From positions 1-64,000 of IMG/VR virus record IMGVR_UViG_3300023110_000023: a stretch of DNA of 64,000 bases; one strand, written 5' to 3'. Numbering within the stretch: the stretch's first letter is position 1; each line of letters starts with the position of its first letter. The position numbers and the translations under genes were made by a program. Shown here piece after piece: positions 1,050 to 63,719 of this stretch. This DNA is from a virus. The notes beneath the pieces are model-generated. The model made no database searches. It was not told where the DNA came from and saw only the letters and a list, made by a program, of their open reading frames with translations.

Positions 1050-1198
1050 TTCCAATGGTCATCATCAACGAAGACAGCACGAAGCAGTCCATCTGCGAGC
1101 GTGTGATGCTACAACACGCCATGATGCTCATGGCGATGGCTGACGACTCCCCGATTCCATCCCCCATCGTGCTGACACGCAAGGGGTTGATGGGATGA
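1046..1198 (+). CDS. small hypothetical protein (50 aa, not in ORF track)
   Basis: MIPMVIINEDSTKQSICERVMLQH...LMG*; ATGA overlaps with both flanking genes; GGAGG upstream. Confidence 0.65.
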   Translation: MIPMVIINEDSTKQSICERVMLQHAMMLMAMADDSPIPSPIVLTRKGLMG

Positions 1199-1737
1199 AC
1201 GCGTACCCGCTGGAATACGATGATGACGGCACTCCCTGTCCGATTCGGTCTGCACTCTCGCTGTGCGATGAACACATCAACAAAATGGGGTTGGAAGGGA
1301 TGCAAGTCCTGTCCACAGCCCTCATCCTCAACGGATGCCCCGAAGAACTGCTTCCACGCACGAAGGCTGGGACTCCATACAAAAAGACGCACCAACACCA
1401 CCCTGTCGTCAAATGGGCGAGCGAGAGCGTTGTCAATTGGCTTTGGCTGGTGAATCACGCTCTCACCATCTGTATCATGAAAGACGAGAGGATGGACACC
1501 AAATACGCCTGTTTGAAATCGTTCCAAGAGTGGAATTATGCCGAGTGCCTCAAATACCTTCCCCAAACCGCCATGACCCCATTTGCACTCGCTATGGATG
1601 ACGAGTTCAAGACGGATGACCCTGTGGAAGCATACAGGGCGTTTTACAACGACAAACGCTTCAAGAACGGTCATAGACCCTCTTGGACTCATTCCTCGCC
1701 ACCAGCGTGGTTTAAACAGCAACAGGAGTGGTTTTGA
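1195..1737 (+). CDS. pyrimidine-dimer DNA glycosylase / endonuclease V-like family protein
   Basis: Motifs LCDEHINKMGLEGMQVLSTA, YKKTHQHHPVVKWASES, DPVEAYRAFY typical of the Pyr_excise family. Confidence 0.75.
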   Translation: MNAYPLEYDDDGTPCPIRSALSLCDEHINKMGLEGMQVLSTALILNGCPEELLPRTKAGTPYKKTHQHHPVVKWASESVVNWLWLVNHALTICIMKDERMDTKYACLKSFQEWNYAECLKYLPQTAMTPFALAMDDEFKTDDPVEAYRAFYNDKRFKNGHRPSWTHSSPPAWFKQQQEWF

Positions 1738-2099
1738 TGCCGAAGGGTGCATACAGAAGGTTGGATTGGGACAGCATGGAACGAGCCGTTGCTGGTGTTC
1801 TGCAAACATACGAGGAACAGGGCGTTCAAATCGTGGAGTGGGATTCGTTCCGCCTCGCAGTCAAGGAACTCTATGTCATCATGGCTGAACACCAGCAAGG
1901 GCGAAACTACGGTCGTGGTCGCAACGCTCTCAACAGGTTATCAGCCCCGATAAGCCTCTATTTCAAGAATCACACGAATTGGAAGAGAGGCAAGCAAGTG
2001 TATCAGCGACCTGTGATTTGGGAAGACGGCACTCGCGATTCAGTTCGCGACCAACGCCATGTCATCCGATGGGTCGGAAGTCCAACGCAGACGCGCTGA
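1737..2099 (+). CDS. hypothetical protein, possibly DNA-binding
   Basis: TGATG coupling to upstream gene; basic 120-aa protein. Confidence 0.6.
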   Translation: MPKGAYRRLDWDSMERAVAGVLQTYEEQGVQIVEWDSFRLAVKELYVIMAEHQQGRNYGRGRNALNRLSAPISLYFKNHTNWKRGKQVYQRPVIWEDGTRDSVRDQRHVIRWVGSPTQTR

Positions 2100-2180
2100 C
2101 ATCCTATAAACATATTGATATTCCAATGTCTTGAGATTGGTGGGCAATTCTTCAAAAACCACAGCACACCAGCGTGGTGC

Positions 2181-3698
2181 GTGGTGGAAGACTTCCAACG
2201 GCTCTCACAGCAACAGGCGAGGGAGATTGCCCTGTTCCCCGACCGCTGGAGTTCGTATTTTCGCACGATTGACGGGAAGGCGTTCCGCTTGGATGCTCGC
2301 CCATACCTTGAGGAAGTGTATCGCCACTTCTCCGCCACCAGCAAGAACTCCGCCACGAAGGTCATCGTGTTGAAGTGTTCTCGGAAGGTTGAGAAGACCG
2401 AAACCATCTGCAACATTCTGCTGTACGCGTTGCTCAATATCCCGTATTTCAACGCAGTCTATACCGCGCCCCGCCAGCCCCAAGTGAGCCGATTCGTTGA
2501 GGAACGATTCAACGGTGCGATGATGTCCAGCGTGAACAACGGATGCCTGTTGAAGCAACGAGTCAAGTCATCTGTGAGCCACCAAACCTTTGATGTCGGT
2601 GCAAGGTCGCTGAACCACTTCTATGCCTATTCCAATTGGGGAGATGCTCACGGTCTGCTGGGGATTGAGGCTGACCTGTGTTGCATTGACGAATATCAAG
2701 ACAGCGACCCCGATGTGCTTCCGATGCTGATGGAGATGCTCGCTCAATCGGACTACAAATGGGTCATCGTCAGCGGGACAGCCCGTGAGCAAGGCTCGGA
2801 GTTTTGGAGGCTGTGGAACACCTCCACGCAAGCCGAGTGGGATGGTGAGAAGTGGATTCACAAAGAGGCAGAAGCCCCGAACATCATCGGGTATCACATC
2901 ACCCAATTGATGCACCCCGACATCACGACCGAAGACATTGAACAAAAGCGAATCACATACACGCCCCGCAGATTCGCGAACGAGGTTCTCGGTGAGTTCT
3001 TTTCGGGTTCAGCCAAACCGCTGACTCTTGACCAAGCCTTGACGATTATTGAGCCCGATATGGACATCGTGGATTCAGTCGTTCCACCCAGCGAATCGTT
3101 CATCGGAATTGATTGGGGGTTGGCGACAACCATCGTGGTCATGGACAAAGACGGCAACATTCTCAACGCCATGAAGGTGGAATCGCGTGGAGAAGACGAC
3201 TTTGATGAAGTCGCCATCATCAAGGACATCATTCTCCGATACAACGCTGTCCAAGTGGTCTGCGACATCGGCTACGGTGCGAGGCAAGTCCGTGAACTCC
3301 AGCGTGAGTTCGGAGAGCGTGTGAAGTCGTGCTATTATGCGAGCCGACCGATGACTCCGTTTGAATATAAGAAACGGGACTCCAATCGCAACCTCATTTT
3401 CATGGCTGTCGTGGACAGAACCACATACCTTGAGCAAACGATTGAGGCAATCAAGAACGGTGAGATTCGCTTGCCTTTCAAGGACAGAAGGCTGGAGTGG
3501 GTGCTGGATGAGTTCTGTGCAATCAATTCGTCAGCCGAAGCAGATATGCGGTCGGGTCGGCAGATTCGTGGACAGCAATTGACCAAATACGGTCGCGATG
3601 GCGATGACCACGCTCTCCACGCTCTCCTGTATGCGAGGCTTGCCCATGAGATGAATGACGATGGTGGGCTTCCGACCATGCGAACCTTCGGAGTTTGA
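2181..3698 (+). CDS. terL: terminase large subunit (lambda GpA-like)
   Basis: PYLEEVY, variant Walker A KCSRKVEKTE, Walker B CCIDEYQD, coupling SGTA, nuclease GIDWG and DGDDHALHA; GTG 30 nt after TTCAAAAACC box (2151). Confidence 0.9.
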   Translation: MVEDFQRLSQQQAREIALFPDRWSSYFRTIDGKAFRLDARPYLEEVYRHFSATSKNSATKVIVLKCSRKVEKTETICNILLYALLNIPYFNAVYTAPRQPQVSRFVEERFNGAMMSSVNNGCLLKQRVKSSVSHQTFDVGARSLNHFYAYSNWGDAHGLLGIEADLCCIDEYQDSDPDVLPMLMEMLAQSDYKWVIVSGTAREQGSEFWRLWNTSTQAEWDGEKWIHKEAEAPNIIGYHITQLMHPDITTEDIEQKRITYTPRRFANEVLGEFFSGSAKPLTLDQALTIIEPDMDIVDSVVPPSESFIGIDWGLATTIVVMDKDGNILNAMKVESRGEDDFDEVAIIKDIILRYNAVQVVCDIGYGARQVRELQREFGERVKSCYYASRPMTPFEYKKRDSNRNLIFMAVVDRTTYLEQTIEAIKNGEIRLPFKDRRLEWVLDEFCAINSSAEADMRSGRQIRGQQLTKYGRDGDDHALHALLYARLAHEMNDDGGLPTMRTFGV

Positions 3699-3823
3699 TA
3701 CACCACGAAGTTCAAGTTTATCAATGTTTGTTTATCTCACCATTTTTGCATATCAATATATTTATATGCTGACATGATTTGGGACATGGTGAAGCGGGTA
3801 TGACCCGCTGACATGGTGATAAC

Positions 3824-4093
3824 ATGGAAGAAAAACAGGAAAAGGTCGCAACGCTTCACAAGCGATGCGAGGATTGCGAAAAATACCCCCGATTCGCTTC
3901 GGCGGTCGGGTGCTGGAACAGGGACTTCGTGTGCAATTGCACCGAAGGCAATATGCTCATGAATGGGCGACGCGTACACCGAGTTCATATCGGGCGATAC
4001 GAAGACTTCGTTGGGCAACCTCCACGCAGGGCGATTGACGACCCCGATGTTGCTGACCCGCTTCCACCGAGAAAACCCTCGCTCTTTGAGTGA
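3824..4093 (+). CDS. small Cys-rich hypothetical protein
   Basis: GGTGA RBS; CEDC...CNC motifs. Confidence 0.6.
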   Translation: MEEKQEKVATLHKRCEDCEKYPRFASAVGCWNRDFVCNCTEGNMLMNGRRVHRVHIGRYEDFVGQPPRRAIDDPDVADPLPPRKPSLFE

Positions 4094-4135
4094 AAAAGCG
4101 GTTCTGTGATAAACCCCCTTTGTGATGGTTGAGGC

Positions 4136-4812: not shown

Positions 4813-5084
4813 GCATGACCGAGAAAGACCCAACGCTCGCTTGGGTTCAAGCCATCCATCGCGACCTCACTACGCTCAAGGACAACCACTTGGCTCATGT
4901 GGATGCTGACCTCCAAATGATGAAGCGGGACATCGCTGAAATCAAGGAAGACTTGGCCGAAGTCAAGCCAATGATGGACAACATTCGTGTGTTCTCCAGC
5001 AAGTTCGGTCGGAAGATGCTCATGGTCTTATTGATTTCAATATCATTCACCATCGGCGCACCGATAGGAATGGAAACGCTTTGA
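4809..5084 (+). CDS. coiled-coil protein with C-terminal TM (XhlA-like architecture)
   Basis: Heptad region then MLMVLLISISFTIGA; ATGA overlap. Confidence 0.6.
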   Translation: MSMTEKDPTLAWVQAIHRDLTTLKDNHLAHVDADLQMMKRDIAEIKEDLAEVKPMMDNIRVFSSKFGRKMLMVLLISISFTIGAPIGMETL

Positions 5085-5807: not shown

Positions 5808-5899
5808 CGCCCAAACATACACTCAAAGTCAATTCAAGAGCGTAGTGGGAAAACGAGTCATGTCGTTCTTAACCGCTTGGATGGAGAGGAAGGAGGTTC

Positions 5900-5998
5900 A
5901 TAGCCCGCCAATCCCGAAAAGGTTGGATGGGGGTTGGTTTCGCAGTCCCACCCCAATGCCTTTGGGCAATACGGTGGTTTCGGTCGGCTGTTGCCTCA
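5900..5998 (+). ncRNA. putative small three-hairpin RNA upstream of portal
   Basis: Late-type box GTTCTTAACC at 5865; three consecutive hairpins with G-U pairs. Confidence 0.35.
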
Positions 5999-6033
5999 AC
6001 ATCGTTAAAAACGGCACAGCCCAACGAACATTC

Positions 6034-8424: not shown

Positions 8425-8831
8425 AACCCGATGACAACCCGTTCCTCAAAGCAAGTGCATGGTGGAGGCAACGAACCAAACCATCCATCGTTGATTCCAA
8501 GACCACGCGAGAACTTGACAGGCTCGCACATCTCATTCTCACAGATGCGGTTAAACGAGCCCCTGTGCTGACGGGCGCGCTTCGTGCTTCGGGTCGTGTG
8601 AGGCGAATCAACAAATACCGCAGGGCGATTGAGTTCGGTGGTGCTGGAACAGGCGTGGACTACGCTTCGTATGTTGAGTTTGGGACAATGCGTACGCGCC
8701 CCCAACCGTTCTTGCGACCAGCGTTGGAACGAAACAAAAAAGCCATCGCGAAGGGCATGGGCAAGTCTGCCCAACGAGTCTTCGGTGGGGCTGTTTTCAA
8801 CATCATGGGAACAATCAAGGTGGGTGAATGA
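8421..8831 (+). CDS. HK97 gp10-like tail/neck component
   Basis: APVLTGALRAS, YASYVEFGT, PQPFLRPA. Confidence 0.85.
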   Translation: MKPDDNPFLKASAWWRQRTKPSIVDSKTTRELDRLAHLILTDAVKRAPVLTGALRASGRVRRINKYRRAIEFGGAGTGVDYASYVEFGTMRTRPQPFLRPALERNKKAIAKGMGKSAQRVFGGAVFNIMGTIKVGE

Positions 8832-8980: not shown

Positions 8981-10004
8981 CAGCGTGGACAAGGGGCAAT
9001 TCGTATCGTGGACAACCGAGAAGGGTCGCTATGTCGGTCAAGTGCTGTCCGTTATCACATCGGGGCGCGTTGCTGTGGTGTCGGCATCGGGCGGTCAAGA
9101 AACCATTGAAGCCAGCACCGAGAACGCGGTCGCGAATGTTCGCATCTATGTGAACAACGAAGACGGCACATTCAGCAGAAGCGACAGGAACGCCCCTGTG
9201 CGTGTCGCCATGCTTCGCATCATCTCCGAGCCCGAAACCAAAGCGGTGTCGGCTGGAGTGCGAAAGACGCTCAAGCAGAAGGCAGAAGACCATAACGAGA
9301 AGGTGAACAACGCATCATCCAAGAAAACCACTACACGCACCCTCGTAGCCGTGTTTGAACGCGGTGTGGGCGCGTATCAAACGAATCCTCAATCGGTGCG
9401 ACCAACCGTGTCCAGCGCGGAACAATGGGCATACGCAAGAGTGAACTCGTTCCTGTACGCGTTGAGGAATGGTCGCTTTCGTGGAGGCAAGCACGACACC
9501 GACCTGTTGCCCAAAGGTCATCCCCAATCCTCCAAGAGCGTGGATGACGAACCCGAACTTCCTGTGGAAGAATCGGTATTGGATTCAATAACCAAAGCAC
9601 CGAAGACCAATTTTCCGAAGCGCGGTGATGACAAAAAGGTGAGTCTGCGAAACTCGCAATACGACCAATTCCCGCTGGCCGAAGCCGAAAAACTGCGAAC
9701 TGAATGGCCGATGATTTGGAGGCGTGGAGGCAACATTCTCGGCAACACTCAATTTCAACGATTGAAGAAGGTTCACGAACAGATGGGCGAAGTCAAGACC
9801 CCAACAGATGAGAAGGCTGTGCGTCTGCGTGAGGCTTGGTCTGCTCGGCACTACAAAGACTTCCGACTCGCTGGAGTCGTGGCTCAAATCAAGTGGCTCA
9901 TGGTCGGCAGTCGTGGGCTGTCGTTCATGCGAAAAGTCATCTCCGATGAGAAGAAACGCCTTCGGGACAGGGAGAAGAACGGAGATTCTGACCAAAACCA
10001 TTGA
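8973..10004 (+). CDS. multi-domain head-associated protein with DUF5824-like domain
   Basis: VFERGVGAY...EQWAYARVNSF motif; lies between portal and protease. Confidence 0.6.
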   Translation: MADSVDKGQFVSWTTEKGRYVGQVLSVITSGRVAVVSASGGQETIEASTENAVANVRIYVNNEDGTFSRSDRNAPVRVAMLRIISEPETKAVSAGVRKTLKQKAEDHNEKVNNASSKKTTTRTLVAVFERGVGAYQTNPQSVRPTVSSAEQWAYARVNSFLYALRNGRFRGGKHDTDLLPKGHPQSSKSVDDEPELPVEESVLDSITKAPKTNFPKRGDDKKVSLRNSQYDQFPLAEAEKLRTEWPMIWRRGGNILGNTQFQRLKKVHEQMGEVKTPTDEKAVRLREAWSARHYKDFRLAGVVAQIKWLMVGSRGLSFMRKVISDEKKRLRDREKNGDSDQNH

Positions 10005-11900: not shown

Positions 11901-12950
11901 ATGGATAACTTTGAGTTCAACGAAGTCGTAGCAAGAGTGAAGGATGCTCTCGGTGGTGCAGGTTCATCAACGGGTTCAACCTTCTTCCCAACAGAAACCA
12001 GCGATGAAATCATCCAAATCGTGTATGAGCAGAACTTCATGCGAAGTCTGTTCCCAGCGATGCCGATGTCCACTCGCACCGTGAATGTCCCAAAACTGTC
12101 GGGAAGCGTGAACTTCCACGCTCACACCCTTTCGGCTGTTGAGTCGGGAACGGAAGCAACCGAGTCCCGCCAAGCAACGACTGAAATCACCCTCACCTTG
12201 AAGACGATGATTGCGAATGTCCCAATCGGGAACTACCTCATCGCGTACGGTGTGGAAGGTCTTCTCACCGTTCTCCGTGATGACATCGCCTCTCGCCTCG
12301 CATACAACGAAGCGAACTTGATGATTAACGGGGACACCGAAACGGGTTCGTCATACGCTGACAACATCATGGGTGCTTACAACGCATCCACCAACCCAAC
12401 AGGCGTGAACGCAACCAACAACGACTACCTGCTTGAGATGGATGGCCTTCGCAAGTCGGCCTCCGCCACCGCAGTCAGCGTCAGCGGAACTTTCGCCCTG
12501 TCCCACCTTCGTCAAGCCATCGCCACTCTCGGAGTGTATGCTGACAACCGTGATGACCTTGCCCTCATCGTTCCTCGCAACCTTGAGGTTCAATTGCTCG
12601 GCATCACCGAATTGCAGACGGTGGACAAATACGGTGCTGGTGCAACCATCCTGTCGGGTGAGATTGGCCGAATCTACGGTGTCCGTGTCTTCGGAACGGG
12701 TGTCATCCCAACGAACTTGAACTACGCTGGTGTGTATGACGGTTCAACGACCACGCAGACCCAAGCCATCTTGACCCACATTCGTTCCCCACTCATCGGC
12801 AACCCAACGCAAGCGGAACGCCGATTCAGCATGGGCTTTGAAGACGAGCCTCAACGCGACCGATTCGTGTTGATTCCTCGCCAAGACATCGCCTTCGGAA
12901 TCCGATACAGCGACGCAATCTGCCTCTTGAACGGAATTGACACCGTTTGA
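11901..12950 (+). CDS. major capsid protein (HK97 fold)
   Basis: Follows protease/scaffold; FFPTETSDEII, VNVPK, MINGDT, GRIYGVRV patterns; 349 aa. Confidence 0.9.
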   Translation: MDNFEFNEVVARVKDALGGAGSSTGSTFFPTETSDEIIQIVYEQNFMRSLFPAMPMSTRTVNVPKLSGSVNFHAHTLSAVESGTEATESRQATTEITLTLKTMIANVPIGNYLIAYGVEGLLTVLRDDIASRLAYNEANLMINGDTETGSSYADNIMGAYNASTNPTGVNATNNDYLLEMDGLRKSASATAVSVSGTFALSHLRQAIATLGVYADNRDDLALIVPRNLEVQLLGITELQTVDKYGAGATILSGEIGRIYGVRVFGTGVIPTNLNYAGVYDGSTTTQTQAILTHIRSPLIGNPTQAERRFSMGFEDEPQRDRFVLIPRQDIAFGIRYSDAICLLNGIDTV

Positions 12951-13725: not shown

Positions 13726-14217
13726 GTGGCGAAGACCGACAGGGGCGTTCCCGACAAAGACCCTCACACGATGCTCAAGGATTTTATTGAAGCCAATATG
13801 GATTCACCCGATGGCTCTTGGACTCCAGCGGTCAATTCGGGTTGGCTCAAGGCCAAGAAGCAGAAGACATTCCAAATCGCGATTCAGCACATCTATGGCG
13901 AATCGGAGATGGCTCACTTTGGGCTCGGAACGCAGGTCGCCATGACCTCACGGCAGTTCCTCCAAATCACCCTATTCGCACCGACCCGCACAGGCGTGTG
14001 GAGTCTGTTCCAAAAACTCAAACTCGCTCTCAACAACGGAACGCTGGCGTACGCGCCCGATGGGATTGACGACTATCACTACATCATCATCCGAAGGACT
14101 GAACTCTCCAAACCCATGACCATCTCCGAGCCCGACTGCGACTTCGGTGGGAATAACGATGACAATTGCATCGGCTATCGCATTGATGTGTCCGTTGAGG
14201 TTCGCTGGGAAGAGTGA
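13726..14217 (+). CDS. putative tail terminator / head-tail completion protein
   Basis: Size, QITLFAPT motif, synteny; GGTGA RBS. Confidence 0.55.
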   Translation: MAKTDRGVPDKDPHTMLKDFIEANMDSPDGSWTPAVNSGWLKAKKQKTFQIAIQHIYGESEMAHFGLGTQVAMTSRQFLQITLFAPTRTGVWSLFQKLKLALNNGTLAYAPDGIDDYHYIIIRRTELSKPMTISEPDCDFGGNNDDNCIGYRIDVSVEVRWEE

Positions 14218-14715: not shown

Positions 14716-14717
14716 TT

Positions 14718-16871: not shown

Positions 16872-17300
16872 ATGGGTCGCAATTGGGGCGCGTCGGCACT
16901 CGCTCGGTCGGGCAGAACGATTCCATCGTGGAGTCCTCGCCCTCTCGCGTACGATGAAGACTATTTTTGGCTCACGCTACGCTGGGGTCAATGGGCTGGT
17001 GATGGTGCGACCATATCGGGAACAGTCGCTCTCGTATCGGGCGAGAGCATGGGTGAAATCGCCCCTGCCTTGCTTCCTTATCCGTTTGCTGGATGGGGCT
17101 ACAACACGGATTCGGCCATCGGATTCGGCACACGAACCGAACCCTATGTCGTGCCTGTCCTGTCGCAATCGGGGACTTTCCTGTTCCACGATTCCACCTT
17201 CTTGGACAGATGTTGGCTATCGGTTTCGGGGACTCTCCAGCGTGAACTTGACGAGCGTGAGAAGCGAACTTTTCGCCCAAACTTCGTCAAGCAGTCGTGA
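16872..17300 (+). CDS. hypothetical protein (late class)
   Basis: ATG 30 nt after GAAATAAACC box. Confidence 0.6.
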   Translation: MGRNWGASALARSGRTIPSWSPRPLAYDEDYFWLTLRWGQWAGDGATISGTVALVSGESMGEIAPALLPYPFAGWGYNTDSAIGFGTRTEPYVVPVLSQSGTFLFHDSTFLDRCWLSVSGTLQRELDEREKRTFRPNFVKQS

Positions 17301-45119: not shown

Positions 45120-46307
45120 ATGAAAGCCCCGTATCTCTCGGCAACACGGCTCAAAATGGCGAAGGACTGCTCGTTCGCGTACGAGCAACACTACGACCCC
45201 AAGAGCGACACTCCGCGCACCTTGAAGAAACTCGCTAACTCACCGTCAAAAACACAGGCGGCGAGAATGGGGAATGTGGTTCACGGTGCGTTGGAGGATT
45301 GGCGTATGCCCGATGAAAACGGCAAAGTCCCAGCACCGAAGTTCGGTCGGCTGATGAAACTCTATGACGAGTGGGCATCCAAGCCACAGTTCGCATTGGA
45401 ATACGAGATGTATGAAGACGGCAAGAACCTCTTGAAGCGATGGTTTGACAGGCGAGGCAAAATGCCGATTCGTGTTGTCGCCACCGAGCAACAAATGGGT
45501 CGCCACGATGCACCGTATGTCCTTGACAACGGTGTGCCGATTTTCGGTTTCATTGACCTCATCGTTGAACACAAAGACGGCACGATTGAATTGGTGGACT
45601 ACAAATCCAATCGCGCCCCGAAGACGCAAGACGAGGCTGACAACGATGTGCAAGCAGGGATTTATCTGTCGTGGGCGAAGGAGAACTTCCCCGACAAACC
45701 CCTGCTGTTCTCGTTTGAGATGCTTCGGTTTGGCGTGGTTTCAACCGTGTGGACTGACAAAAAAATTGAGAACTTCAAGGGCTGGCTCAAGACCCAATTC
45801 AACATGATTGAATCGCTCACAGAAGGCATCCCATCCATCGGTGATTCGTGTCGCTGGTGTGCATACACCTCCATCTGCCCATCGGCTCAAGACTTGATTC
45901 ACAAAGGTGCATTTGACTTGGTGGAACATGAGTTCGGCTCGGATGACGAAGCGTTGGATGCTCTCGCCAAAGTCAAGGCTGGGCAGGGAATCCTCAATCG
46001 CGTACGCAAGTCCATTGAAGACGACTTCAAGGGGCGACTTGACCCACTCAACATCTCCGAAACGATTCAAACGCAAGGCTGGGAAGTGTCCTTCAACCAG
46101 CGTGAGCGAACCGAGTTCATTCCATCGGAAGTGCAACGGCTCGTTCCTCCAGCGGTGTTTGGACAAATGGTGTCGCTCACCAAGACAGCGGTGGACAAAG
46201 TGTTGCCGATTCTGCCCGAAGACACGGCTCAAGCCATCAAGGATTCGGCAATCAAGAAGCCATACAACGCATTCACGGTGAAGAAGGCTGACAAGTTCAA
46301 AGAGTGA
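45120..46307 (+). CDS. PD-(D/E)xK RecB/Cas4-like exonuclease
   Basis: GNVVHGALE, GFIDL, VDYKS, QAGIY, CRWCAYTSIC. Confidence 0.85.
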   Translation: MKAPYLSATRLKMAKDCSFAYEQHYDPKSDTPRTLKKLANSPSKTQAARMGNVVHGALEDWRMPDENGKVPAPKFGRLMKLYDEWASKPQFALEYEMYEDGKNLLKRWFDRRGKMPIRVVATEQQMGRHDAPYVLDNGVPIFGFIDLIVEHKDGTIELVDYKSNRAPKTQDEADNDVQAGIYLSWAKENFPDKPLLFSFEMLRFGVVSTVWTDKKIENFKGWLKTQFNMIESLTEGIPSIGDSCRWCAYTSICPSAQDLIHKGAFDLVEHEFGSDDEALDALAKVKAGQGILNRVRKSIEDDFKGRLDPLNISETIQTQGWEVSFNQRERTEFIPSEVQRLVPPAVFGQMVSLTKTAVDKVLPILPEDTAQAIKDSAIKKPYNAFTVKKADKFKE

Positions 46308-47448: not shown

Positions 47449-48258
47449 ATGAGCGAGGAATTGACTCCGAACAGCGATGTGTCCCGAACCGTCAAAGCAC
47501 AGTTTGATGCTGGACAGTTCTCCGAATTGATGACCACTTTGGTGATGGATGGAAGCACCCAATCACCTGTGCGTGTTCTGCTCACGGAGGATGGTGTCAG
47601 CGTGTGGACTCACGACAACGCCAAGACGATTCAAGCGTTGGTGTCCAATCGCGATATTGACGGCTTGACCGTTGATGAGCCATGCGTCTTGCTGGTTGAG
47701 CCCAAGTCATTCTCGGAACTGCTGTCGGCCAAGTTCGGTGGACACACGGTTCGCGTACAGACTGACGCAGGGAAGCCAATCACGATTCGCTCAAAAGACG
47801 GCTCACAGGCGGTGTATCACGCCAGCGATGAAGACGACTGCAACATTGTCCCCGACCATTGGGTTCTGCCCGTGAACGACAAAGGAGAGCGTCTATTCCC
47901 GATGTTTGACAACCAGCCAGCAACCAGCGTGGTGCAATTGACCCGAAGCGAACTGAATCGGGGCATCACCGACATGAAGGTGGCGAAAGCCCCGTATGCT
48001 GTGTTCTCGTTCAACGCCAAGAAGTCCGAATGTCAATCGGGTCATTGGGGCGCGAAGACCAATCGTTCAGCCTCTCCAATCGTGGCGACTCTCACGGGTG
48101 AACCTGTGGAAGTCTGCTTCACGAACAACCTCTCCACGATTCTGTCCGTCTTGGATGGCGACCTCATCACGATTCACAAACACAAAGACGGTGGGTTCGC
48201 TGTCTTGGAAGGTGCGACCACTACGGTCGTCAGCACCGAAGCAACGAGGGAGGCTTGA
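47449..48258 (+). CDS. pcn: DNA sliding clamp (PCNA-like)
   Basis: ~270 aa two-domain alpha/beta pattern (LTEDGVSVWTHD); RFC and PolB nearby. Confidence 0.6.
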   Translation: MSEELTPNSDVSRTVKAQFDAGQFSELMTTLVMDGSTQSPVRVLLTEDGVSVWTHDNAKTIQALVSNRDIDGLTVDEPCVLLVEPKSFSELLSAKFGGHTVRVQTDAGKPITIRSKDGSQAVYHASDEDDCNIVPDHWVLPVNDKGERLFPMFDNQPATSVVQLTRSELNRGITDMKVAKAPYAVFSFNAKKSECQSGHWGAKTNRSASPIVATLTGEPVEVCFTNNLSTILSVLDGDLITIHKHKDGGFAVLEGATTTVVSTEATREA

Positions 48259-49671: not shown

Positions 49672-50534
49672 TGGCTAAAGAACGCGTACACAGGAAGAAG
49701 GATTTGCTCGCAGATGATGACGAAGTGCAACGAAGAGTCCAATCGGGCAATCGTGCCGAGAGGCTGTCGCTGATTCGGATTTGGCTGGAATCGGAGGGAT
49801 TGACTCCAGCGGATATTGAACCCAATATGGAGTCCAAACCGAATATGCGGTTTGGCTTGGAATCCGTCAAGGAATTGTCGCTGGCTTTGCTGGTTGAAGA
49901 CCTTGAAAAACTGAAACGGATTGACCACCGTGAACATTGGCTGATGCGTCAATACCTCGCTGAACTTGGGTTTGAAATCGTGCATCTCAACACGGGAAGC
50001 GGGGACATGGCGAGTCGCAAGGTCAGCATTGAACGCAAGGAAGACGACCTTCTTCCATCACTCTTTGACCAACGCAGACTGCGACAATTGAGTGCGATGC
50101 GTGAGGAAGCCGAACACTCGTTCCTCGTCATCACGAAGGATTGGGAAGACATCAAGGTGGAGGCTGGGAAGAAAGGCATGAGCATTCGCACCCTGCTGGG
50201 CTACATCGCCAGCCTGTGTGCTGTCGGCTATCCACCCATATTCATGCCCGACAAATACGATGCAAGCGACCTCATTGAGCGAATCGTGGACAAAATTGAG
50301 GATGACAACCACAGGCTATTCGTGGCTCGCCCCAGCAAAGCGAAGCCACAGGCGTATCGCGATGCGTTGATTGAGGGGTTGCCGAAGGTCGGGGCATCCA
50401 CCCGAAGAAAATTGGTGGCGAAGTTCAAGACGCTGGCGGAATTGACACAGGCCAGCGTTGAGGATTTGATGGAAGTGGATGGTGTCGGCAAGGTGCTTGC
50501 TGAACGCATACACTCGGTTTTTCATGCAAAATGA
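49671..50534 (+). CDS. ERCC4/XPF (Hef-like) nuclease with tandem HhH
   Basis: IDHRE, GD, IERKEEDDL, GLPKVG, VDGVGKVLAERI. Confidence 0.85.
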   Translation: MAKERVHRKKDLLADDDEVQRRVQSGNRAERLSLIRIWLESEGLTPADIEPNMESKPNMRFGLESVKELSLALLVEDLEKLKRIDHREHWLMRQYLAELGFEIVHLNTGSGDMASRKVSIERKEDDLLPSLFDQRRLRQLSAMREEAEHSFLVITKDWEDIKVEAGKKGMSIRTLLGYIASLCAVGYPPIFMPDKYDASDLIERIVDKIEDDNHRLFVARPSKAKPQAYRDALIEGLPKVGASTRRKLVAKFKTLAELTQASVEDLMEVDGVGKVLAERIHSVFHAK

Positions 50535-51009: not shown

Positions 51010-52308
51010 ATGGCGAGAATCCTTTGGGGCTCGGAACAACCCACACGACCGACAGGCTACGGTGTTGTCAGCCGTGAAATCATCAGCAGACTCATCAAGA
51101 CACACGGGCATGAAGTGTTCGTGATGGGCTGGGACTACAACGGAGAACCATTCCCCCACCCCGATGGCTGGACACTCGTTCACGCTGGGCTCAACCGATT
51201 CGGTGGCGACCCGCTGAATCCCGCTGACCCGAACTCCCCAACGGTCTTGGATATGCACTTGGCCGAACTCAAGCCCGACCTGTATCTGTCTTTGATTGAT
51301 TGCTGGTTCATCGGTCATGCTGTCCTTTCAACGAACAGGGCGCGCATTCCATACATCGCCTATACCCCGATTGACGGCTTCCCAATCGCGTACGCTTGGG
51401 CGAAAATCTTGGGGAATGTCCACACTCCACTCTTCATGGCTGACTACGGCAAGCAGGTCTTCCAAGACTTCGTGGCCGAATACAACAGCGAGAACGGCAC
51501 AGCACCGAAGGAGATGCTCTTAGACGACCTTGACCGCTACAACAACGCAGAACTGCCGAGAATCCATCATGGCGTGGATGAGAAGGTCTTCCGACCACGA
51601 AGCCTTGCCGAGAAGGAATCAGCACGACAGGCATTGGGAATCACTTGGGACACCGTGTTCCTGTCCGTTGGTCGCAACGGGAACAGGAAGCAAATCCCTC
51701 GTCTGCTGGATGCCTTCAAACTCTTCATTGAACGCAATCCCAAAGCCAACGCTGGACTCATCATCCATTGTGGCGACCCGACTGACAACATGAGTCTTGG
51801 TGGCTGGAACTTGCCCGAATTGGTCAAGCAGAAGGGCTTGGAGAGCCATGTTCGCTTCTCCGACATGAGTGCTAATCCGCTTCATGGATTGAGCCGTGAA
51901 GACCTCTCCACGCTCTATGGCCTGTCCGATGTCCATGTCCTCGCAACAGGAGGCGAAGGATTCGGGATTCCATCGGTGGAAGCCATGTCCTGTGGCGTTC
52001 CAATCATCCTCCCCGATAACTCAACCGCGCCCGAACTGATTGGCGAGGATGACGAGAGGGGCTGGCTCGTTCCACTTGCGACCACCATCACGGGTGCGAA
52101 GTGGGGCGTGAACATGGGCTTGGTTGATGTTGAAGCACTCGCTGATGCGATTGCAGATGCTCACCATGATGTCAAAGGTCGCAAGGCCAAAGGCAAGAAG
52201 GCTCGCCAATTTATTGAGGCGAATATGACATGGGACATCATCGCCCAGCAATTCCACGACCTCATTGAAGCAACGATTGACCGACAAAAACCGCTGGGGA
52301 TGGAATGA
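51010..52308 (+). CDS. GT-B (GT4-like) glycosyltransferase
   Basis: PTGYG, HGVD, GRNGNRK, EGFGIPSVEAMSCG; ATG 30 nt after TTCATAAAGGTGGG. Confidence 0.9.
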   Translation: MARILWGSEQPTRPTGYGVVSREIISRLIKTHGHEVFVMGWDYNGEPFPHPDGWTLVHAGLNRFGGDPLNPADPNSPTVLDMHLAELKPDLYLSLIDCWFIGHAVLSTNRARIPYIAYTPIDGFPIAYAWAKILGNVHTPLFMADYGKQVFQDFVAEYNSENGTAPKEMLLDDLDRYNNAELPRIHHGVDEKVFRPRSLAEKESARQALGITWDTVFLSVGRNGNRKQIPRLLDAFKLFIERNPKANAGLIIHCGDPTDNMSLGGWNLPELVKQKGLESHVRFSDMSANPLHGLSREDLSTLYGLSDVHVLATGGEGFGIPSVEAMSCGVPIILPDNSTAPELIGEDDERGWLVPLATTITGAKWGVNMGLVDVEALADAIADAHHDVKGRKAKGKKARQFIEANMTWDIIAQQFHDLIEATIDRQKPLGME

Positions 52309-53178: not shown

Positions 53179-54216
53179 ATGCTGTGGGCAGAATCATACA
53201 GACCAGCCACGCTGGATGATGTGATTGGACAACCACACATCACGAAGCGACTCGCGTACATGGTGGACATTCTTCACCAGCAGGGTGGCGATGGTGGATT
53301 CCCACATCTCATGTTCATCGGCAAGGCTGGAACGGGCAAGACCTCGCTGGCGATGGCGTTGATGAAGACGATGTTCGGTGATGATTGGGATGCGAACTTC
53401 GTGGAGATGAACGCCAGCGATGAGCGAAGCATCTCGGTCGTGAGAACCAAAGTCAAGGAGTTCGCAAGGCGAGGCGTGATTGGCTCATACAAAGCACCCA
53501 ACGGGGAAGTCCGAAGCATCCCGTTCAATGTCGTGTTCCTTGACGAATGCGACCAATTGACACCCGATGCACAGGGCGCGTTGAGGCGAATCATGGAACA
53601 ATACGCCAAGACCACGCGATTCATCCTGTCGTGCAATTATCCGCACCGCATCATAGACCCGATTAAAGACCGCTGTGCGTTCTCCGACACCCGATTCCGA
53701 CCGATACCCCCAGCGACTACAAAGGAGGCTCTCCAGCGTGTCGTGGGGCGTGAAAAACTGACCATCACCGATGAGGCTGTGGAACTGATTGCCGAGATGT
53801 GCAACGGCTCTATGAGGAAGGCTCTCAACACGCTGTTCGCAACGACCCGTGTTCCCGATGAGGCGACCGTTGATGATGTCCGAGATGTGATTGCCGAGAT
53901 GAGCCCGAAGGCTCGTACGCGATTGCTGGCGACCGCTTTTCAATTGGGGCAGACCGATGATGTTGAGCAATACGCCAAACTGTGTCAGCGGATTGACAAA
54001 CAGGTTGAATCGTTGGCGGAACGAGGTTTCAGCGGAACGGATATTTTGGAATCCGTGTTCAAATCCACTTCGGAAGACGAGCGAATGCCTGTGGCTGTCA
54101 AGAGGCAGATATTCGGCTCAATAGGGGATGCCCTGTATCACGCATCCATCGCTCAAGACGACATTCTTGTAGTCAAGTCATGGTTGAGGAAAATCGGTGA
54201 GGGTCATGGTGGCTAA
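53179..54216 (+). CDS. rfcS: replication factor C small subunit
   Basis: WAESYRP, GKAGTGKTS, EMNASDER, LDECD, AQGALRRIME, DRC. Confidence 0.92.
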   Translation: MLWAESYRPATLDDVIGQPHITKRLAYMVDILHQQGGDGGFPHLMFIGKAGTGKTSLAMALMKTMFGDDWDANFVEMNASDERSISVVRTKVKEFARRGVIGSYKAPNGEVRSIPFNVVFLDECDQLTPDAQGALRRIMEQYAKTTRFILSCNYPHRIIDPIKDRCAFSDTRFRPIPPATTKEALQRVVGREKLTITDEAVELIAEMCNGSMRKALNTLFATTRVPDEATVDDVRDVIAEMSPKARTRLLATAFQLGQTDDVEQYAKLCQRIDKQVESLAERGFSGTDILESVFKSTSEDERMPVAVKRQIFGSIGDALYHASIAQDDILVVKSWLRKIGEGHGG

Positions 54217-54583: not shown

Positions 54584-57255
54584 TTGTCGCTGTGGAATAT
54601 CACGAAGACCGCGATTTGACGGTTAGGCTACGGGTGAAGTCGCTGGATGGCGACTCGTTGGTGCTGAATGTTGGAGGCTGTGTGCCTCGCTTTTGGACTG
54701 AAAAAGACCCCAGCAAACTGCGTCTGCCGAAGGGAATCAAGTTCAAGGCATCCGACTACACCTCCATTGAGGGCGCGCCCCTGTGGGAAGTGCGAGCCAA
54801 ACTTCCATCGGAACTCCGTGAGATTCGTGAGGTTCTGTTCCCATCGTATTGCGCCGATGTTCCCTTCGCCAATTTGGTTCGCTGGATTTACGATTGGACT
54901 GCGGTTATTGAAGTCAATACCGATGTTCTGCACCAGCCACAGATTCGCCCGATTCACATTCGCCCCAGCGATGAAGACCCAGCGAACTTCAAACTCAATC
55001 CGCTTTATTTTGACATTGAAACCGCTGATTCGCTGGACACCGAGAACACGCCCGAACGCGTGGTGTCCATCGCCATCTATGACCAACGCACAGATACCCA
55101 CGAATGTGCGACAATTCGCCATACGAGCGAGCGACAGGTCAAGCGGTTCTTATCCAGCCAAGAGGCGTTGCACAGCGTTGTTGAGCATGAGAACGACATT
55201 CCACCGCTGAACTCCGACCGCATCAAAGTCTTCAACATTGAAGGCGATGACGATGACGAGCGAGAGGCTGGATTGCTGTGGTGGTTTCATCACAGGCTTG
55301 AACACTACGACCCCGACCTCATCGCTGGGCAGAACATCATTGACTACGACATACCGTATCTCCGAAACCGTTGCCGAATCCAACGCAACAACATGGAACG
55401 GCTTCACATGGGCAGTCCACCCGTGTGGGCGACCTATCCGAAACTGTTCCGAAAGAGGCGTGGATTGATGCCTCCGTTTGACACGAAAAAGGTGTATGCC
55501 GAGCAAGTTCAAGGCTCGGCGGCGACTACGGGGCAAGCGAGTCTTGGATGGATGGGGGCGACCACGCTGGGCTACGGCAAAGTTCCACGCACCTCAATCA
55601 AGGAGATGATGGACAGCGACCCGCTGATGCTGGTCATTTACAACATTTGGGACAATGTGGTGGCTCATCGTTGCATGGACACGCTGGACTTGGTGGCGTT
55701 TTATCAAGCGAAGGTGGCGTTTCACAATTCCACGATTCACCACGCTCACAGCAACATGATGCTCATTGAGGACATGATGGGACACCTGCTCAAAGAACGC
55801 AAGGTCGTGATGCCCTCGCTGGACACCGTGAGGGCGCGATTGACGGGCGAAGGGATTGAGCAAGGTGGATTCGTGATGGAAGCACCATCGGGCATTTGGA
55901 GGAACGCTATTGAATTGGATAACTCAATGGAATACCCCAGCGTCATCATCTCATGCAACGCAGACCTGTCCACGAAGGTTCGTGAGGAAGACTATCCCGA
56001 TGGCTTCCCATTCCCTGTGGCTCGCACTCCAGCGGGTCGCATTTACCGACAGGACATTGAGGGACTGATGCCCGCGTTCCTTCGCAGACTCGCCAGCGAG
56101 CGTGAGATTCTGCGAGCCAACATGAGCGAAGCCGAAGACAAAGGCGACCACGCTCTTGCTGACAAACTCAACAAAAAGCAACGGGTCATGAAGGAGAACA
56201 TGAACTCTTGGTATGGTGTGCTGGGTTCGGGCAGAACCGAGAAGACAGCCCAACGACCGTTCCGCATGACCGACCCCGAAATCGGCTCGGACATCACCGA
56301 GATTGCGAGGCTACACAACGATTGGAACAAACAGATGATTGAGAAGACAACCATGTGGTTTCACGATGACGGAGTGTTCCCCGAACCATTGATACCCCAT
56401 AACATTGATAAACCGTCAGCCCCCCGTGTATCGGAGTCCGAGTCGGGCGGGTGGCTGGAACTCCGCTTCCGTGTGCTGTATCAAGACACCGATTCGTGTA
56501 AAATGTGCATAGAGAATCATGACGAGGCTGAACAGGCCATCCGACCATTCACCGAACAGGACATCTATTCCATCGGCAATATGCTGACGGTGATGCTCAA
56601 CGATTCGTTCCATGAGTTCGTGCAGACGACCATCGGCATCCCACGAAACGAGTTCTTCAAGGTCAAGCCCGATGCCTATTATTCTCGCTATTTTCAATGG
56701 GGAGTCAAGAAGCGATACGCGTACATGGACTTCAACGGGAAGAAGGGCTATCGTGGCGTGGAGATGCGAAGAAGTTCCTCCCCTCAAATCGTAAAAGACG
56801 CACAGCAAGCCATTTTTGACAGCATCCTCAACGGGTGTTCCAAGACCGAATTGAACTCAATTATCCGCGATATTGAAGCCAATATGCTGGATGAAACCAA
56901 GACTCCAGCGTTGAACTTCGGTCAGCCAATGGGAATCAAGAAAGAAGGAACGATGGCTCACAAATCAGCGATGTGGACAAACACCAATCTCGGAACTCAA
57001 TTCGCTTTGGGCGATAAGCCGATGTTGTTCATCGCATCCAACACACCCGCTGGAACGCCCTCAAACCGTGTCGTTGCTGTGGAGTGGGGAGATGACCCAG
57101 CAAGTCTTGGCGTAGTCGTGGACAGGAAGGCAAGCATCACGAAGTTCTTCAACGATTCAAACTCGTTCTCGCAGATATTGGGGGCGATGGGGACATCGTG
57201 GGAACAGGCGATTCTCGGCATCGGCAAGACCTCAATGGGTGATTGGTTCAAATGA
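54562..57255 (+). CDS. polB: family B DNA polymerase
   Basis: FDIET, NIIDYDIPYL, YNIWD, DNSMEYPS, KENMNSWYG, YQDTDS, KKRY, RGVEMRRS. Confidence 0.95.
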   Translation: MAWKPFLIVAVEYHEDRDLTVRLRVKSLDGDSLVLNVGGCVPRFWTEKDPSKLRLPKGIKFKASDYTSIEGAPLWEVRAKLPSELREIREVLFPSYCADVPFANLVRWIYDWTAVIEVNTDVLHQPQIRPIHIRPSDEDPANFKLNPLYFDIETADSLDTENTPERVVSIAIYDQRTDTHECATIRHTSERQVKRFLSSQEALHSVVEHENDIPPLNSDRIKVFNIEGDDDDEREAGLLWWFHHRLEHYDPDLIAGQNIIDYDIPYLRNRCRIQRNNMERLHMGSPPVWATYPKLFRKRRGLMPPFDTKKVYAEQVQGSAATTGQASLGWMGATTLGYGKVPRTSIKEMMDSDPLMLVIYNIWDNVVAHRCMDTLDLVAFYQAKVAFHNSTIHHAHSNMMLIEDMMGHLLKERKVVMPSLDTVRARLTGEGIEQGGFVMEAPSGIWRNAIELDNSMEYPSVIISCNADLSTKVREEDYPDGFPFPVARTPAGRIYRQDIEGLMPAFLRRLASEREILRANMSEAEDKGDHALADKLNKKQRVMKENMNSWYGVLGSGRTEKTAQRPFRMTDPEIGSDITEIARLHNDWNKQMIEKTTMWFHDDGVFPEPLIPHNIDKPSAPRVSESESGGWLELRFRVLYQDTDSCKMCIENHDEAEQAIRPFTEQDIYSIGNMLTVMLNDSFHEFVQTTIGIPRNEFFKVKPDAYYSRYFQWGVKKRYAYMDFNGKKGYRGVEMRRSSSPQIVKDAQQAIFDSILNGCSKTELNSIIRDIEANMLDETKTPALNFGQPMGIKKEGTMAHKSAMWTNTNLGTQFALGDKPMLFIASNTPAGTPSNRVVAVEWGDDPASLGVVVDRKASITKFFNDSNSFSQILGAMGTSWEQAILGIGKTSMGDWFK

Positions 57256-59286: not shown

Positions 59287-60140
59287 TGTTGATTGGTGCG
59301 AAGAGGAACTTCTCGCCCATCAAAGCATGGTTTGAGGCATTCCAACACGGCAAGCCATCGCAATACCCACTCATCGTGGTGGGCGATGCTGGCGTGGGGA
59401 AGACGACCGTTGTGAAGCACTACGCGACCGCGAACGGATTTGATGTCATCTCCAGCGAGGGCGGTGAATCGCGTACGGCTTCGGACTTGAAGCGTCTGTT
59501 CAGCGATGCGAGGATGCCGACTTTCTTTGGACAACGCAGGGCTGTCATCCTTGAGGATGCCGACCTGCTGGGGAAGAAGGAATGGAAGGAGGTTGCCGAG
59601 CCGATTGGAAGCAAGGCATTCCCGTTGGTCATTATCGCGCCCAGCGTGTCGTCTGTGGCGTGGAATTATCGCAGGGGTGCATTGGTGCATCACCTTCCGA
59701 ATCCTTCGCACAGCGACCTCACAGCGTATCTCACGGGGATTGCTGACGATTCCGACCCAGCCCACTTGGATTGGATTGCATCCAACGCATCCACATGGCG
59801 ACAGGCTGAACACCTTCTCCGAACCACGCCCGTTGGATTCCAAGACGAGATTGGAGATTGGAAGCCCAGCCGACACGGACACGATGAAGTCGTGGCGTTG
59901 CTCGCTGGAGATGGTGGCGAATCATTCTCATCCCATCCACTCGCTGTGATTTCATGTGCCGAGTTCAACGGGTGCGACCCCGATGTTGTGTTGAAGGCGA
60001 TGGATTTGCACAGCAAGTCTTGGTCAGCCGACCTATTGAGTCCGATAAGCCGAGCATACATCTCCACGATGCGAACCCAAACGCAGAACCGACCGCCATT
60101 CCGTCAGCGTCAAGCCCAAACCCGATTCCTCAACAAATGA
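59271..60140 (+). CDS. rfcL: replication factor C large subunit-like (short)
   Basis: GDAGVGKTT, TFFGQRRAVILEDAD. Confidence 0.7.
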   Translation: MDERLMLIGAKRNFSPIKAWFEAFQHGKPSQYPLIVVGDAGVGKTTVVKHYATANGFDVISSEGGESRTASDLKRLFSDARMPTFFGQRRAVILEDADLLGKKEWKEVAEPIGSKAFPLVIIAPSVSSVAWNYRRGALVHHLPNPSHSDLTAYLTGIADDSDPAHLDWIASNASTWRQAEHLLRTTPVGFQDEIGDWKPSRHGHDEVVALLAGDGGESFSSHPLAVISCAEFNGCDPDVVLKAMDLHSKSWSADLLSPISRAYISTMRTQTQNRPPFRQRQAQTRFLNK

Positions 60141-62411: not shown

Positions 62412-62417
62412 GGTGAG

Positions 62418-63719
62418 ATGATGAAGCGAAAAGTGTTGATTCCGATTGGCGATGACGATGAGAACTCCACCGAGCATTCCCTGTTCGGAGGCGTTCACTC
62501 AAGTCTGCTGGGCTGGAATGTGGATGATTCTCATTGGAGAGCCACGCAAGCATCGCTGTCCCATCGCGTACAGATGGGGGCTTTCACCGAGATGACCCGA
62601 CTGATGACTGACCAACGAACCGCACGACCCGATGGTGAAATCACGCTGGAGGATTTTGGTCGGGCTGTCAAGGTCGTGGATGACACATACGATGATGTCC
62701 GAGAAGCAAAGGGTCGGGTTGAGAACACGGACTGTGAACTGACCTTCACTTCACCACAGCAGATGCTTGAGGCTGACAGTCAGCGAGGCTATCCCAACGC
62801 CCCTTCATTCAGCGACCCAACCAATTTGGGTGAGGCTAACCAATATCCGTTTGACTTCGGCTGTCCCGTCTTCGTTGTGAGGCAGGGGTGGGGAACTCCC
62901 TTCCCCGTGTTCTCCGAGTTTCAATATCTCGTTGAAGCCAACACAGCATTCAATGACGACCGTAGTGGTGCGTATTCGTGGGTCGGCAATCGCATCAAGA
63001 GCCTTCGGACTATGCCCACCGACCAATACGGCCACATCAATGCAATTGATGTGCCGATGGTGCTGATTCCACTCCCCGACCATGAACCGTATCTCGTTGG
63101 GAAGGTCGCCATGTTGAACACGAATCGCTTCTCGGTCGTGGGCAACATCGCTGACCCGATTCGCACAGGAGTGAACGCTGGGAAGCCCCTTATTCGCCCC
63201 GATATATCGTTTGATGTGTTCCGCTGGCTTCGCCAAAACTATCAGCCACAACACCCACAGGAAACGGCTTGGACTGACATTCGCATCATGGCGTTGGAGA
63301 AGACGCTCAACGGCTTCATTCGCTCGGATGGAGAGCGACTCAATGACTACATCAACAATGCTGGCTATCTCCAATCGTCAGCCATGCTGTTGAAGCACCT
63401 GTCAGCCGTGAACGCGCTGGCGGAGGAAAACACCGAAACGCCTGTCGTGCAAGAGCGAGTGGGGGACTTCATCCCGTCTTGGAAGGATAAGCGAAAGCCC
63501 ATCCTCATTGACCGAGCATTCCCCCAATACCCCGTCTTCCATGACGAGATTCGCTGTGCTGGATGCAACGGCAGGGTGCTGATGAAACTCCCTGCTGGGA
63601 ACACCCTCTCATCGCTTCCATGCCCACACGATTCGTGCGAAAGCACCCTCCAATTCACCCACCTTCTCGGCAACCAAAACGGTCAAAAAGGTGGGACTGA
63701 AAATGAAATTGCGAAGTGA
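62418..63719 (+). CDS. hypothetical protein with C-terminal Zn ribbon
   Basis: GAGGTGA RBS; CAGC...CPHDSC. Confidence 0.7.
   Translation: MMKRKVLIPIGDDDENSTEHSLFGGVHSSLLGWNVDDSHWRATQASLSHRVQMGAFTEMTRLMTDQRTARPDGEITLEDFGRAVKVVDDTYDDVREAKGRVENTDCELTFTSPQQMLEADSQRGYPNAPSFSDPTNLGEANQYPFDFGCPVFVVRQGWGTPFPVFSEFQYLVEANTAFNDDRSGAYSWVGNRIKSLRTMPTDQYGHINAIDVPMVLIPLPDHEPYLVGKVAMLNTNRFSVVGNIADPIRTGVNAGKPLIRPDISFDVFRWLRQNYQPQHPQETAWTDIRIMALEKTLNGFIRSDGERLNDYINNAGYLQSSAMLLKHLSAVNALAEENTETPVVQERVGDFIPSWKDKRKPILIDRAFPQYPVFHDEIRCAGCNGRVLMKLPAGNTLSSLPCPHDSCESTLQFTHLLGNQNGQKGGTENEIAK

Follow-up and report, generated by a model that had tools for sequence, protein, structure and literature searches.

GTAC survives only where it overlaps CGCG in the genome of a salt-marsh virus: a candidate footprint of protective CGCG modification

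The stretch of viral DNA considered here, called the window below, comprises bases 1-64,000 of the 78,301-bp record IMGVR_UViG_3300023110_000023 of the IMG/VR database, and the same numbering is used for the window and for the whole record. The record is the genome, rated 97% complete, of an uncultured tailed virus from salt-marsh/marine water. Our subject is the tetranucleotide GTAC, which in this genome is found only where it overlaps the tetranucleotide CGCG. The window contains exactly 27 copies of GTAC, and all 27 lie in CGCGTAC or in GTACGCG, the same word read on the other strand; a copy in either context is called shielded in what follows. A preliminary description of the window had put the number by eye at roughly 27, each in this context, and the coordinates that it listed match the following sites:

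1200..1206, plus strand, CGCGTAC (GTAC at 1203)
2423..2429, minus strand, GTACGCG
3971..3977, plus strand, CGCGTAC
8692..8698, minus strand, GTACGCG
9455..9461, minus strand, GTACGCG
12242..12248, plus strand, CGCGTAC in the major capsid gene (ATC GCG TAC)
14049..14055, minus strand, GTACGCG
16946..16952, plus strand, CGCGTAC
18623..18629, plus strand, CGCGTAC
22571..22577, plus strand, CGCGTAC
22718..22727, no strand assigned, CGCGTACGCG, the sole GTAC with a shield on both sides
23803..23809, plus strand, CGCGTAC
27076..27082, plus strand, CGCGTAC
32368..32374, minus strand, GTACGCG
35254..35260, minus strand, GTACGCG
39141..39147, plus strand, CGCGTAC
42411..42417, plus strand, CGCGTAC
45176..45182, plus strand, CGCGTAC
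45999..46005, plus strand, CGCGTAC
47752..47758, plus strand, CGCGTAC
49683..49689, plus strand, CGCGTAC
51387..51393, plus strand, CGCGTAC
53253..53259, plus strand, CGCGTAC
53915..53921, minus strand, GTACGCG
56718..56724, plus strand, CGCGTAC
59470..59476, plus strand, CGCGTAC
62565..62571, plus strand, CGCGTAC

Past the window there are eight more shielded sites, at genome positions 64090, 66160, 68585, 71588, 72598, 74301, 76244 and 77957. The complete genome consequently holds 35 copies of GTAC, 35 of them in CGCGTAC or GTACGCG; of the many copies outside CGCG that the preliminary description had named as evidence that would count against its proposal, none was seen. Counting GTAC by its flanks against a codon-preserving shuffle, which the same description had put forward as a check, gives a clear answer. 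In 200 synonymous-codon shuffles within genes, with the proteins preserved, 146.6 ± 10 copies of GTAC are expected and 7.3 ± 2.8 of them (maximum 20) fall in the CGCG context, so that about 139 copies are expected outside this context, where 0 were observed. The empirical background, made up of about 110 other viral loci, has 73 of 3,457 GTAC copies (2.1%) in a CGCG context, and the highest single locus reaches 17%. CGCG covers 1.05% of the genome, and no 4-mer or 5-mer other than GTAC, GCGC and the words containing them is confined to overlaps with it.

The surviving sites are found in every reading frame (GCG TAC, TAC GCG, CGT ACG CG and CGC GTA C) and in both orientations, which indicates that the rule acts on DNA rather than on codons. 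Codon choice follows from it in detail. Tyrosine after G had been described as otherwise written TAT, and this holds: GTG TAT occurs 17 times and GTG TAC once, that one being shielded, while GGG TAT occurs 10 times and GGG TAC never. When Ala-Tyr is encoded with GCG and the base before GCG is C, TAC is used 12 times and TAT once; when any other base precedes, TAT is used 8 times and TAC once, and this lone TAC has GCG on its 3' side.

The same context logic is obeyed by GCGC, which is reduced to 106 copies in the genome from the 332 ± 13 of the codon shuffle, and which overlaps CGCG in 83 of 86 cases in the window and in 103 of 106 in the genome. The preliminary description had noted that most copies overlap CGCG, with exceptions at 5056 and 18943; the statement was borne out, and a third exception at 54851 had been missed. 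The three copies without CGCG overlap are:

5054..5059, CGGCGC (GCGC at 5056), overlapping CGGCG
18941..18946, CGGCGC (GCGC at 18943), overlapping CGGCG
54851..54856, GCGCCG, overlapping CGCCG

Like these three, all 16 surviving copies of GCNGC in the genome overlap CGGCG or CGCCG; they read GCGGCG or CGCCGC, or otherwise overlap CGGCG. Eleven of the 16 form a cluster at 18937..20550, all within the tape-measure gene. In nearly all survivors of GTAC, GCGC and GCNGC, a C of the purged site is the first C of CG(S)CG.

Many other short words are missing from the genome, whatever their context. The 78 kb contain no copy of ACGT, AGCT, CCGG, CTAG, GATC or TCGA. Also absent are the degenerate 5-mers CCNGG, GGNCC, GTNAC, GCWGC, CASTG, CTSAG and TGSCA and about a dozen asymmetric 5-mers matching type IIS restriction sites, such as ACTGG, GAGAC, CTCAG and GCAGC. 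Among the 64 palindromes of 6 bp, 56 are absent or nearly so, and the eight with more than two copies are CAATTG, TCATGA, TCGCGA, ACGCGT, GCGCGC, CGTACG, CGCGCG and ATATAT, five of which contain or overlap CGCG. Hexamers built on CGCG stand at the codon-shuffle expectation (ACGCGT 15 against 21.5, GCGCGC 11 against 17.3, TCGCGA 36 against 30.2). The proteins themselves have been affected, because GGNCC, CCNGG, GTNAC and GCNGC are purged: the dipeptides Gly-Pro, Pro-Gly and Val-Thr do not occur in the proteome (about 71, 71 and 90 expected), and Ala-Ala occurs 14 times where 134 are expected. Overlap with CGCG does not rescue GATC, GGNCC, GTNAC or GCWGC, of which 0 overlapping copies are found where 14, 8, 4 and 4, respectively, are expected. 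Rescue is thus selective, which fits a methyl group, with an effect specific to each enzyme, better than a bulky adduct. A separate case is the non-palindromic AGTA/TACT, which is present once (30070) although a Markov model predicts about 115 copies; its purge matches no common restriction site.

The geometry of the overlaps is simple. In CGCGTAC, CGCG and GTAC share a single base pair, the outer C:G of CGCG, and one modified position would consequently account for every surviving GTAC and for all 106 GCGC; the GCNGC survivors are attributed to the same pair. RsaI, which cuts GTAC, is known to be blocked at some sites where an overlapping CpG methylation falls on the C of GTAC. We consider it probable, at roughly 60%, that CGCG carries a small protective modification, likely N4-methylcytosine (m4C) and likely written by a methylase of the virus that we call P0001, and that this modification shields overlapping GTAC and GCGC. 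The virus would have been under very heavy restriction pressure, to which nearly all its short restriction targets would have been lost. In its packaged DNA every CGCG would be modified at the outer C:G pair, most likely as m4C on the first C, and the writer would most likely be P0001, an orphan methylase of the TSPPY type. In CGCGTAC the modified C would then be the C of GTAC on the opposite strand, and in CGCGC it would be the inner C of GCGC. Putative host enzymes of the RsaI type (GTAC) and of the HhaI type (GCGC) would be blocked at overlapping copies, as would enzymes cutting ACGCGT, TCGCGA and GCGCGC, and selection would have removed every unshielded copy. A modified first C of CGCG that blocks a GTAC-cutting enzyme had already been suggested in the preliminary description; the geometry and the candidate enzyme support this part of it, and the larger kind of mark that it also allowed for is disfavoured by the selective rescue.

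The candidate enzyme is encoded outside the window, in which the preliminary description had correctly recognised no methyltransferase, and it came to light in the search of the rest of the genome that the description had called for:

genome 69,006-70,664, plus strand, P0001, a beta-class DNA methyltransferase, the true start of which is probably Met76, at about 69,231

P0001 matches the Pfam family PF01555 (N6_N4_Mtase) at 8e-42, with 144 bits against a cut-off of 26.7. Its motif IV, CITSPPYF (residues 100-107), is invariant in 10 homologues, and its motif I, DPFGGSGTT (about residues 491-499), which binds S-adenosylmethionine, is intact. The motifs stand in the order of the beta class (IV, target-recognition region, I) with a conserved Cys/His-rich insert between them, and there is an insert of roughly 150 residues before motif I. 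SPPY as opposed to DPPY in motif IV distinguishes N4-cytosine from N6-adenine enzymes of the beta class, although exceptions exist, and the TSPPY of P0001 is the form typical of N4-cytosine enzymes. It is an orphan, without a partner nuclease, and its gene obeys every avoidance rule of the genome. The closest homologues are 57-93% identical. PDB, NCBIfam and the collections searched yielded no close homologue that has been characterised, and scans of viral contigs and species genomes for relatives of P0001 returned almost only generic short beta-class methylases from loci without the conditional pattern, a result uninformative on specificity. Genes for a C5-methylase, for TGT/DpdA and for a thymidylate-synthase-like hydroxymethylase were looked for in the genome and none was found, so that there is no sign of wholesale base replacement. 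A GT4 glycosyltransferase encoded at 50623-52308 was considered as the cause and rejected: it is a core gene of the virus family, found in 38 relatives, and a gene common to the family cannot explain a rule specific to this genome. P0001 ends in ...DTQTFDDWFN (genome 70620-70664) and its homologues in ...QRTLFDW; these C-termini loosely resemble PCNA-binding tails, and no PCNA gene was found in this genome.

Related viruses provide a contrast. IMG/VR holds 80 loci with a capsid protein 63-90% identical to that of this virus, and two complete relatives have terminal repeats. The conditional GTAC pattern is absent from all of the approximately 55 related loci examined. The complete relative G001 has 431 copies of CGCG and no PF01555 methylase, and it contains 0 GTAC, 0 ACGCGT and 2 TCGCGA. 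Hexamers with CGCG are thus spared here and purged in G001, which lacks the methylase, and this difference supports a modification of CGCG. At the capsid site at 12242, 84 relatives encode the same Ala-Tyr without GTAC. The possibility that the sites are ancestral GTAC copies retained through conversion of their flanks is ruled out, the homologous positions in relatives being without GTAC, and the sites are consequently new in this virus lineage. Furthermore, a sister strain known from a 1-kb metagenome contig (L278), with 86% nucleotide identity, has the same methylase C-terminus and conserves the shielded site at 71,588.

Throughout the family the relatives (loci L012-L091 and the complete genomes G001, G002, G003 and G006) form a mosaic of all-or-none word purges. 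AGCT is lacking in essentially all relatives, with at most one copy in any locus or genome, and GATC is absent from most of them. Each of ACGT, CTAG, GTAC, CCGG, TCGA and CGCG is missing from some lineages and has a normal frequency in others. Four of the five complete genomes retain only 6-8 of the 64 hexamer palindromes; CAATTG and TCATGA are kept by all five, CAATTG with an enrichment of about 2-fold. G002 (81.5 kb) and G006 (81.7 kb) each carry their own, different methylase genes of the TSPPY type, and the hexamers spared in G002 are GTCGAC (48) and TGGCCA (53), which suggests the same logic from methylase to spared word with other targets. In G002 and G006 GCGC is found only as TGCGCY; an explanation of this by shielding was rejected, since it equals the union of RGCGCY, TGCGCA and CGCG avoidance, and TGCGCY is purged in the present genome too. 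Flank rules do not always mean shielding.

Several observations weigh against a CGCG shield written by P0001, or at least against its simplest form. CGCG is itself depleted: the genome has 208 copies, where the codon shuffle gives 352 and a constrained model about 460. CCGCGG has been purged (1 observed, 14.3 expected), and the two findings together imply that protection at CGCG is incomplete or not old. The CGSCG rule requires a second or a relaxed specificity. The specificity of P0001 is read only from the pattern that it would explain, and two metagenome contigs (L275 and L276) that carry a 50%-identical homologue have zero CGCG, so that the subfamily is not uniformly specific for CGCG. The sister strain L278 has an unshielded AGTACT where this genome reads GAGGGC, so that the GTAC purge is specific to this lineage and probably recent; moreover, the link between methylase and pattern depends on one genome. 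Finally, passive shielding predicts neither enrichment nor even spacing, and the shielded GTAC sites have both. They are about 5-fold enriched over the codon shuffle (35 against 7.3 ± 2.8). Markov chain Monte Carlo sampling of synonymous swaps, in which 92 absent words were forbidden, GTAC, GCGC and GCSGC were allowed only in shielded contexts and CGCG was capped at 208, gives about 13 shielded GTAC, 8 of them in unshuffled sequence. The gaps between the sites are too even, with a coefficient of variation of 0.51 that none of 20,000 random placements equalled in regularity, while for the control words CGCG, GCGC, GGCC, CAATTG, TCATGA, TCGCGA, ACGCGT, CGCGCCC and CGCGATT it ranges from 0.76 to 1.08; against a null with a minimum distance of 650 bp, p = 0.04.

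The excess of sites over both null models, their enrichment in both orientations, the regular gaps that set them apart from the nine control words and their newness in this lineage are what would be expected if CGCGTAC were a positively selected functional DNA word, used for binding, nicking or initiation, with CGCG as part of the site or as an enabling shield. We find this distinctly unlikely. The word is a 7-mer around which no longer consensus was found, its copies lie inside genes and in all frames, and the complete relatives without any GTAC show that such a function would not be family-wide; one site is missing in a strain diverged by about 5%. GCGC and GCNGC obey the same context logic without even spacing, and CGCGCCC and CGCGATT are also enriched, about 2.3-fold, with 127 of the 208 CGCG copies flanked by CCC, ATT or TAC, which implies that the null models miss some constraints. 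Even spacing could possibly arise if a restriction enzyme required a pair of sites in cis and so selected against close pairs. More speculative, and improbable in our estimation, is the idea that CGCG-embedded GTAC is actively maintained at about one site per 2.2 kb, as regular nicks or bound sites that serve replication, recombination or packaging. Since methylation would be confined to a single strand of each site, a host or viral GTAC enzyme could nick it without cutting; the virus would then exploit a host restriction enzyme for its own use instead of merely evading it. A host CGCG methylase is a live alternative as the writer. The shield would be real, but a host enzyme, either an orphan or part of a CGCG restriction-modification system, would mark the viral progeny, and P0001 would have another target. 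Single-molecule real-time (SMRT) metagenomics has found methylated CGCG in metagenome-assembled genomes of marine Euryarchaeota/MGIIa and in viral ones of Caudovirales, methylated GTAC in one marine Euryarchaeota genome, and methylated GATC and AGCT across marine archaea (PMC8919816, PMC9516812), and these motifs match words avoided by this virus family; the findings count equally in favour of the preferred reading of a modified CGCG. The co-occurrence of a 50%-identical P0001 homologue with total CGCG avoidance would also be understandable, and the partial depletion of CGCG fits protection limited to some hosts. We nevertheless judge a host writer unlikely. CGCG-rich relatives without such a methylase gene show no exemption of GTAC, ACGCGT or TCGCGA, protection would be lost at each jump to a methylase-free host and yet the purge outside CGCG is absolute, and the virus does encode an intact enzyme of the m4C type.

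It is also conceivable that no modification is involved, and that host GTAC and GCGC enzymes simply cut poorly beside a CGC flank, either because they prefer other flanks or because of the local structure of the DNA. Restriction rates are known to vary with the flanking bases, and a purine follows CGCGTAC at 34 of 36 sites, so that CGCGTAC(G/A) makes an alternating pyrimidine-purine tract. Such effects usually come in degrees, however, and the present rule is all-or-none (0 of about 139); stable Z-DNA, moreover, needs tracts longer than 7-8 bp. Three sites (GTAC, GCGC and GCNGC) and three CGCG hexamers would have to share one flank quirk, and CGCG-rich relatives do not exempt GTAC. We give this explanation very little credence, and CGCG protection by a viral methylase remains the reading that we prefer.

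Two further properties of the sites were tried and set aside. The strand bias of CGCGTAC in plus-strand genes (20:7) is not significantly different from the 3.4:2.2 predicted by codon usage, and an enrichment of GTAC near gene starts (10 against 4.9 within 120 nt, p = 0.017) is marginal and depends on rough gene calls.

Each component of the proposed system is well known. Restriction-site avoidance had reportedly been recognised earlier, by Sharp and by Rocha et al. The methylation of a Dam or Dcm motif can block the enzyme of an overlapping motif, and the overlaps in this genome have that same geometry: the first C of CGCG serves as the C of GTAC, and in GCGC as the inner C. In the known cases such blocking is a nuisance at the bench; here it would be an evolutionary footprint that decides which sites are kept, through a modification deduced from that footprint. 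Site avoidance in phage and archaeal virus genomes has been surveyed by Rusinov et al. 2018 (PMC6286503). As in those cases, host restriction targets appear to have been removed by selection, mostly through synonymous changes; unlike them, the extent is far greater, some dipeptides are lost, and whether GTAC and GCGC are avoided depends on their overlap with another word. Orphan anti-restriction methyltransferases are known from phages such as the lactococcal 936-type (PMC4190342), and archaeal tailed viruses self-methylate or purge motifs (PMC8651126). P0001 resembles them in being solitary, without a nuclease partner, and in its predicted role in protecting the viral genome. It differs in its insert of about 150 residues, in a putative target deduced from the pattern, and in that its main visible effect would be to protect the overlapping sites of other systems. 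The SMRT studies (PMC8919816, PMC9516812) reported CGCG methylation in the same type of habitat and found that m4C-type methylases dominate marine viral methylase genes, but did not tie CGCG methylation to the conditional survival of other sites; this virus is apparently not among the genomes that they describe.

What distinguishes the present case is that these elements combine in a purge that is absolute, depends on context and is legible from sequence alone. The genome offers a CGCG shield with three rescued words, methylase-free relatives as a contrast, and an unexplained enrichment and spacing of shielded GTAC that hint at a use and would be of wider interest if confirmed. Each lineage of this marine family of about 80-kb viruses carries its own all-or-none set of erased words. 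If the proposed modification is right, a plain sequence would reveal both the virus's own mark (CGCG, outer C) and part of the restriction repertoire of its unseen hosts (GTAC, GCGC, GCNGC and some fifty more words), and would provide cheap methylome predictions for salt-marsh viromes together with a candidate enzyme.

The genes of the virus are those of a tailed virus with a replication module. A prohead protease is also encoded in the window, and the module includes a helicase, a PD-(D/E)XK nuclease and a pair made up of a MoxR-type AAA+ gene and a VWA gene, in addition to some of the following:

2115-3698, large terminase
5788-8424, portal fused to a Mu-F-like domain
11901-12950, major capsid protein
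18574-20868, tape measure protein
48496-49671, weak PrimPol and large-primase matches
49656-50534, XPF/ERCC4-HhH2 nuclease
50623-52308, plus strand, 561-aa protein with a C-terminal GT4 glycosyltransferase domain, inside the replication module
53179-54216, RFC-like AAA+ clamp loader
54550-57255, family-B DNA polymerase (PolB)
genome 75841-76485, plus strand, outside the window, FkbM-family methyltransferase (Methyltransf_21, 2.6e-10)

The protein at 50623-52308 also matches the Pfam family for GT4 enzymes of conflict systems. The FkbM-family protein is probably not a DNA methylase, and its gene is overlapped by a 370-aa antisense open reading frame. The replication genes are of archaeal type. 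PolB is only about 24% identical to the polymerases of haloarchaeal tailed viruses, and the nearest capsid protein in a collection of isolated phages is that of a Microcystis phage, at 25%. The viral proteins are not acidic, so that the virus is not a halovirus. An archaeal-type replisome, with PolB, an RFC-like clamp loader, primase matches and nucleases, is a trait that this virus shares with Magrovirales, the viruses of Poseidoniales, whose genomes measure 90-110 kb (PMC12999244). The present genome (78.3 kb, 97% complete) and its complete relatives (80.6-82.8 kb) are outside this range, and for this reason the virus is not placed in Magrovirales. Our best guess for the host is a marine archaeon such as a member of Poseidoniales.

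Public metagenome runs were examined as Logan assembled contigs. At least 12 salt-marsh runs contain 96-99% of the sampled words of the virus, and some aquatic, freshwater and marine runs contain parts of it. By these sequence matches and the related loci in IMG/VR, the virus belongs to a widespread uncultured family of roughly 80-kb viruses. When the contigs of four runs were aligned to the genome, strain variants were present. Contigs from other samples skip or replace 3693-4097, 14306-14777 and 4682-4798 (about 391-398, 413-429 and 115 bp, respectively), stretches that look like small strain-variable accessory cassettes. Some longer words around CGCG also recur in the genome. The commonest CGCG-containing 10-mer is CGCGACCGCG/CGCGGTCGCG, counted 10 times per orientation in a scan of both strands; GGGCGCGTTG is counted 8 times, and a palindrome around AATCGCGATT, namely TGGAATCGCGATTCCA, recurs. 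CGCGACCGCG/CGCGGTCGCG, GGGCGCGTTG and TGGAATCGCGATTCCA are possibly regulatory boxes.

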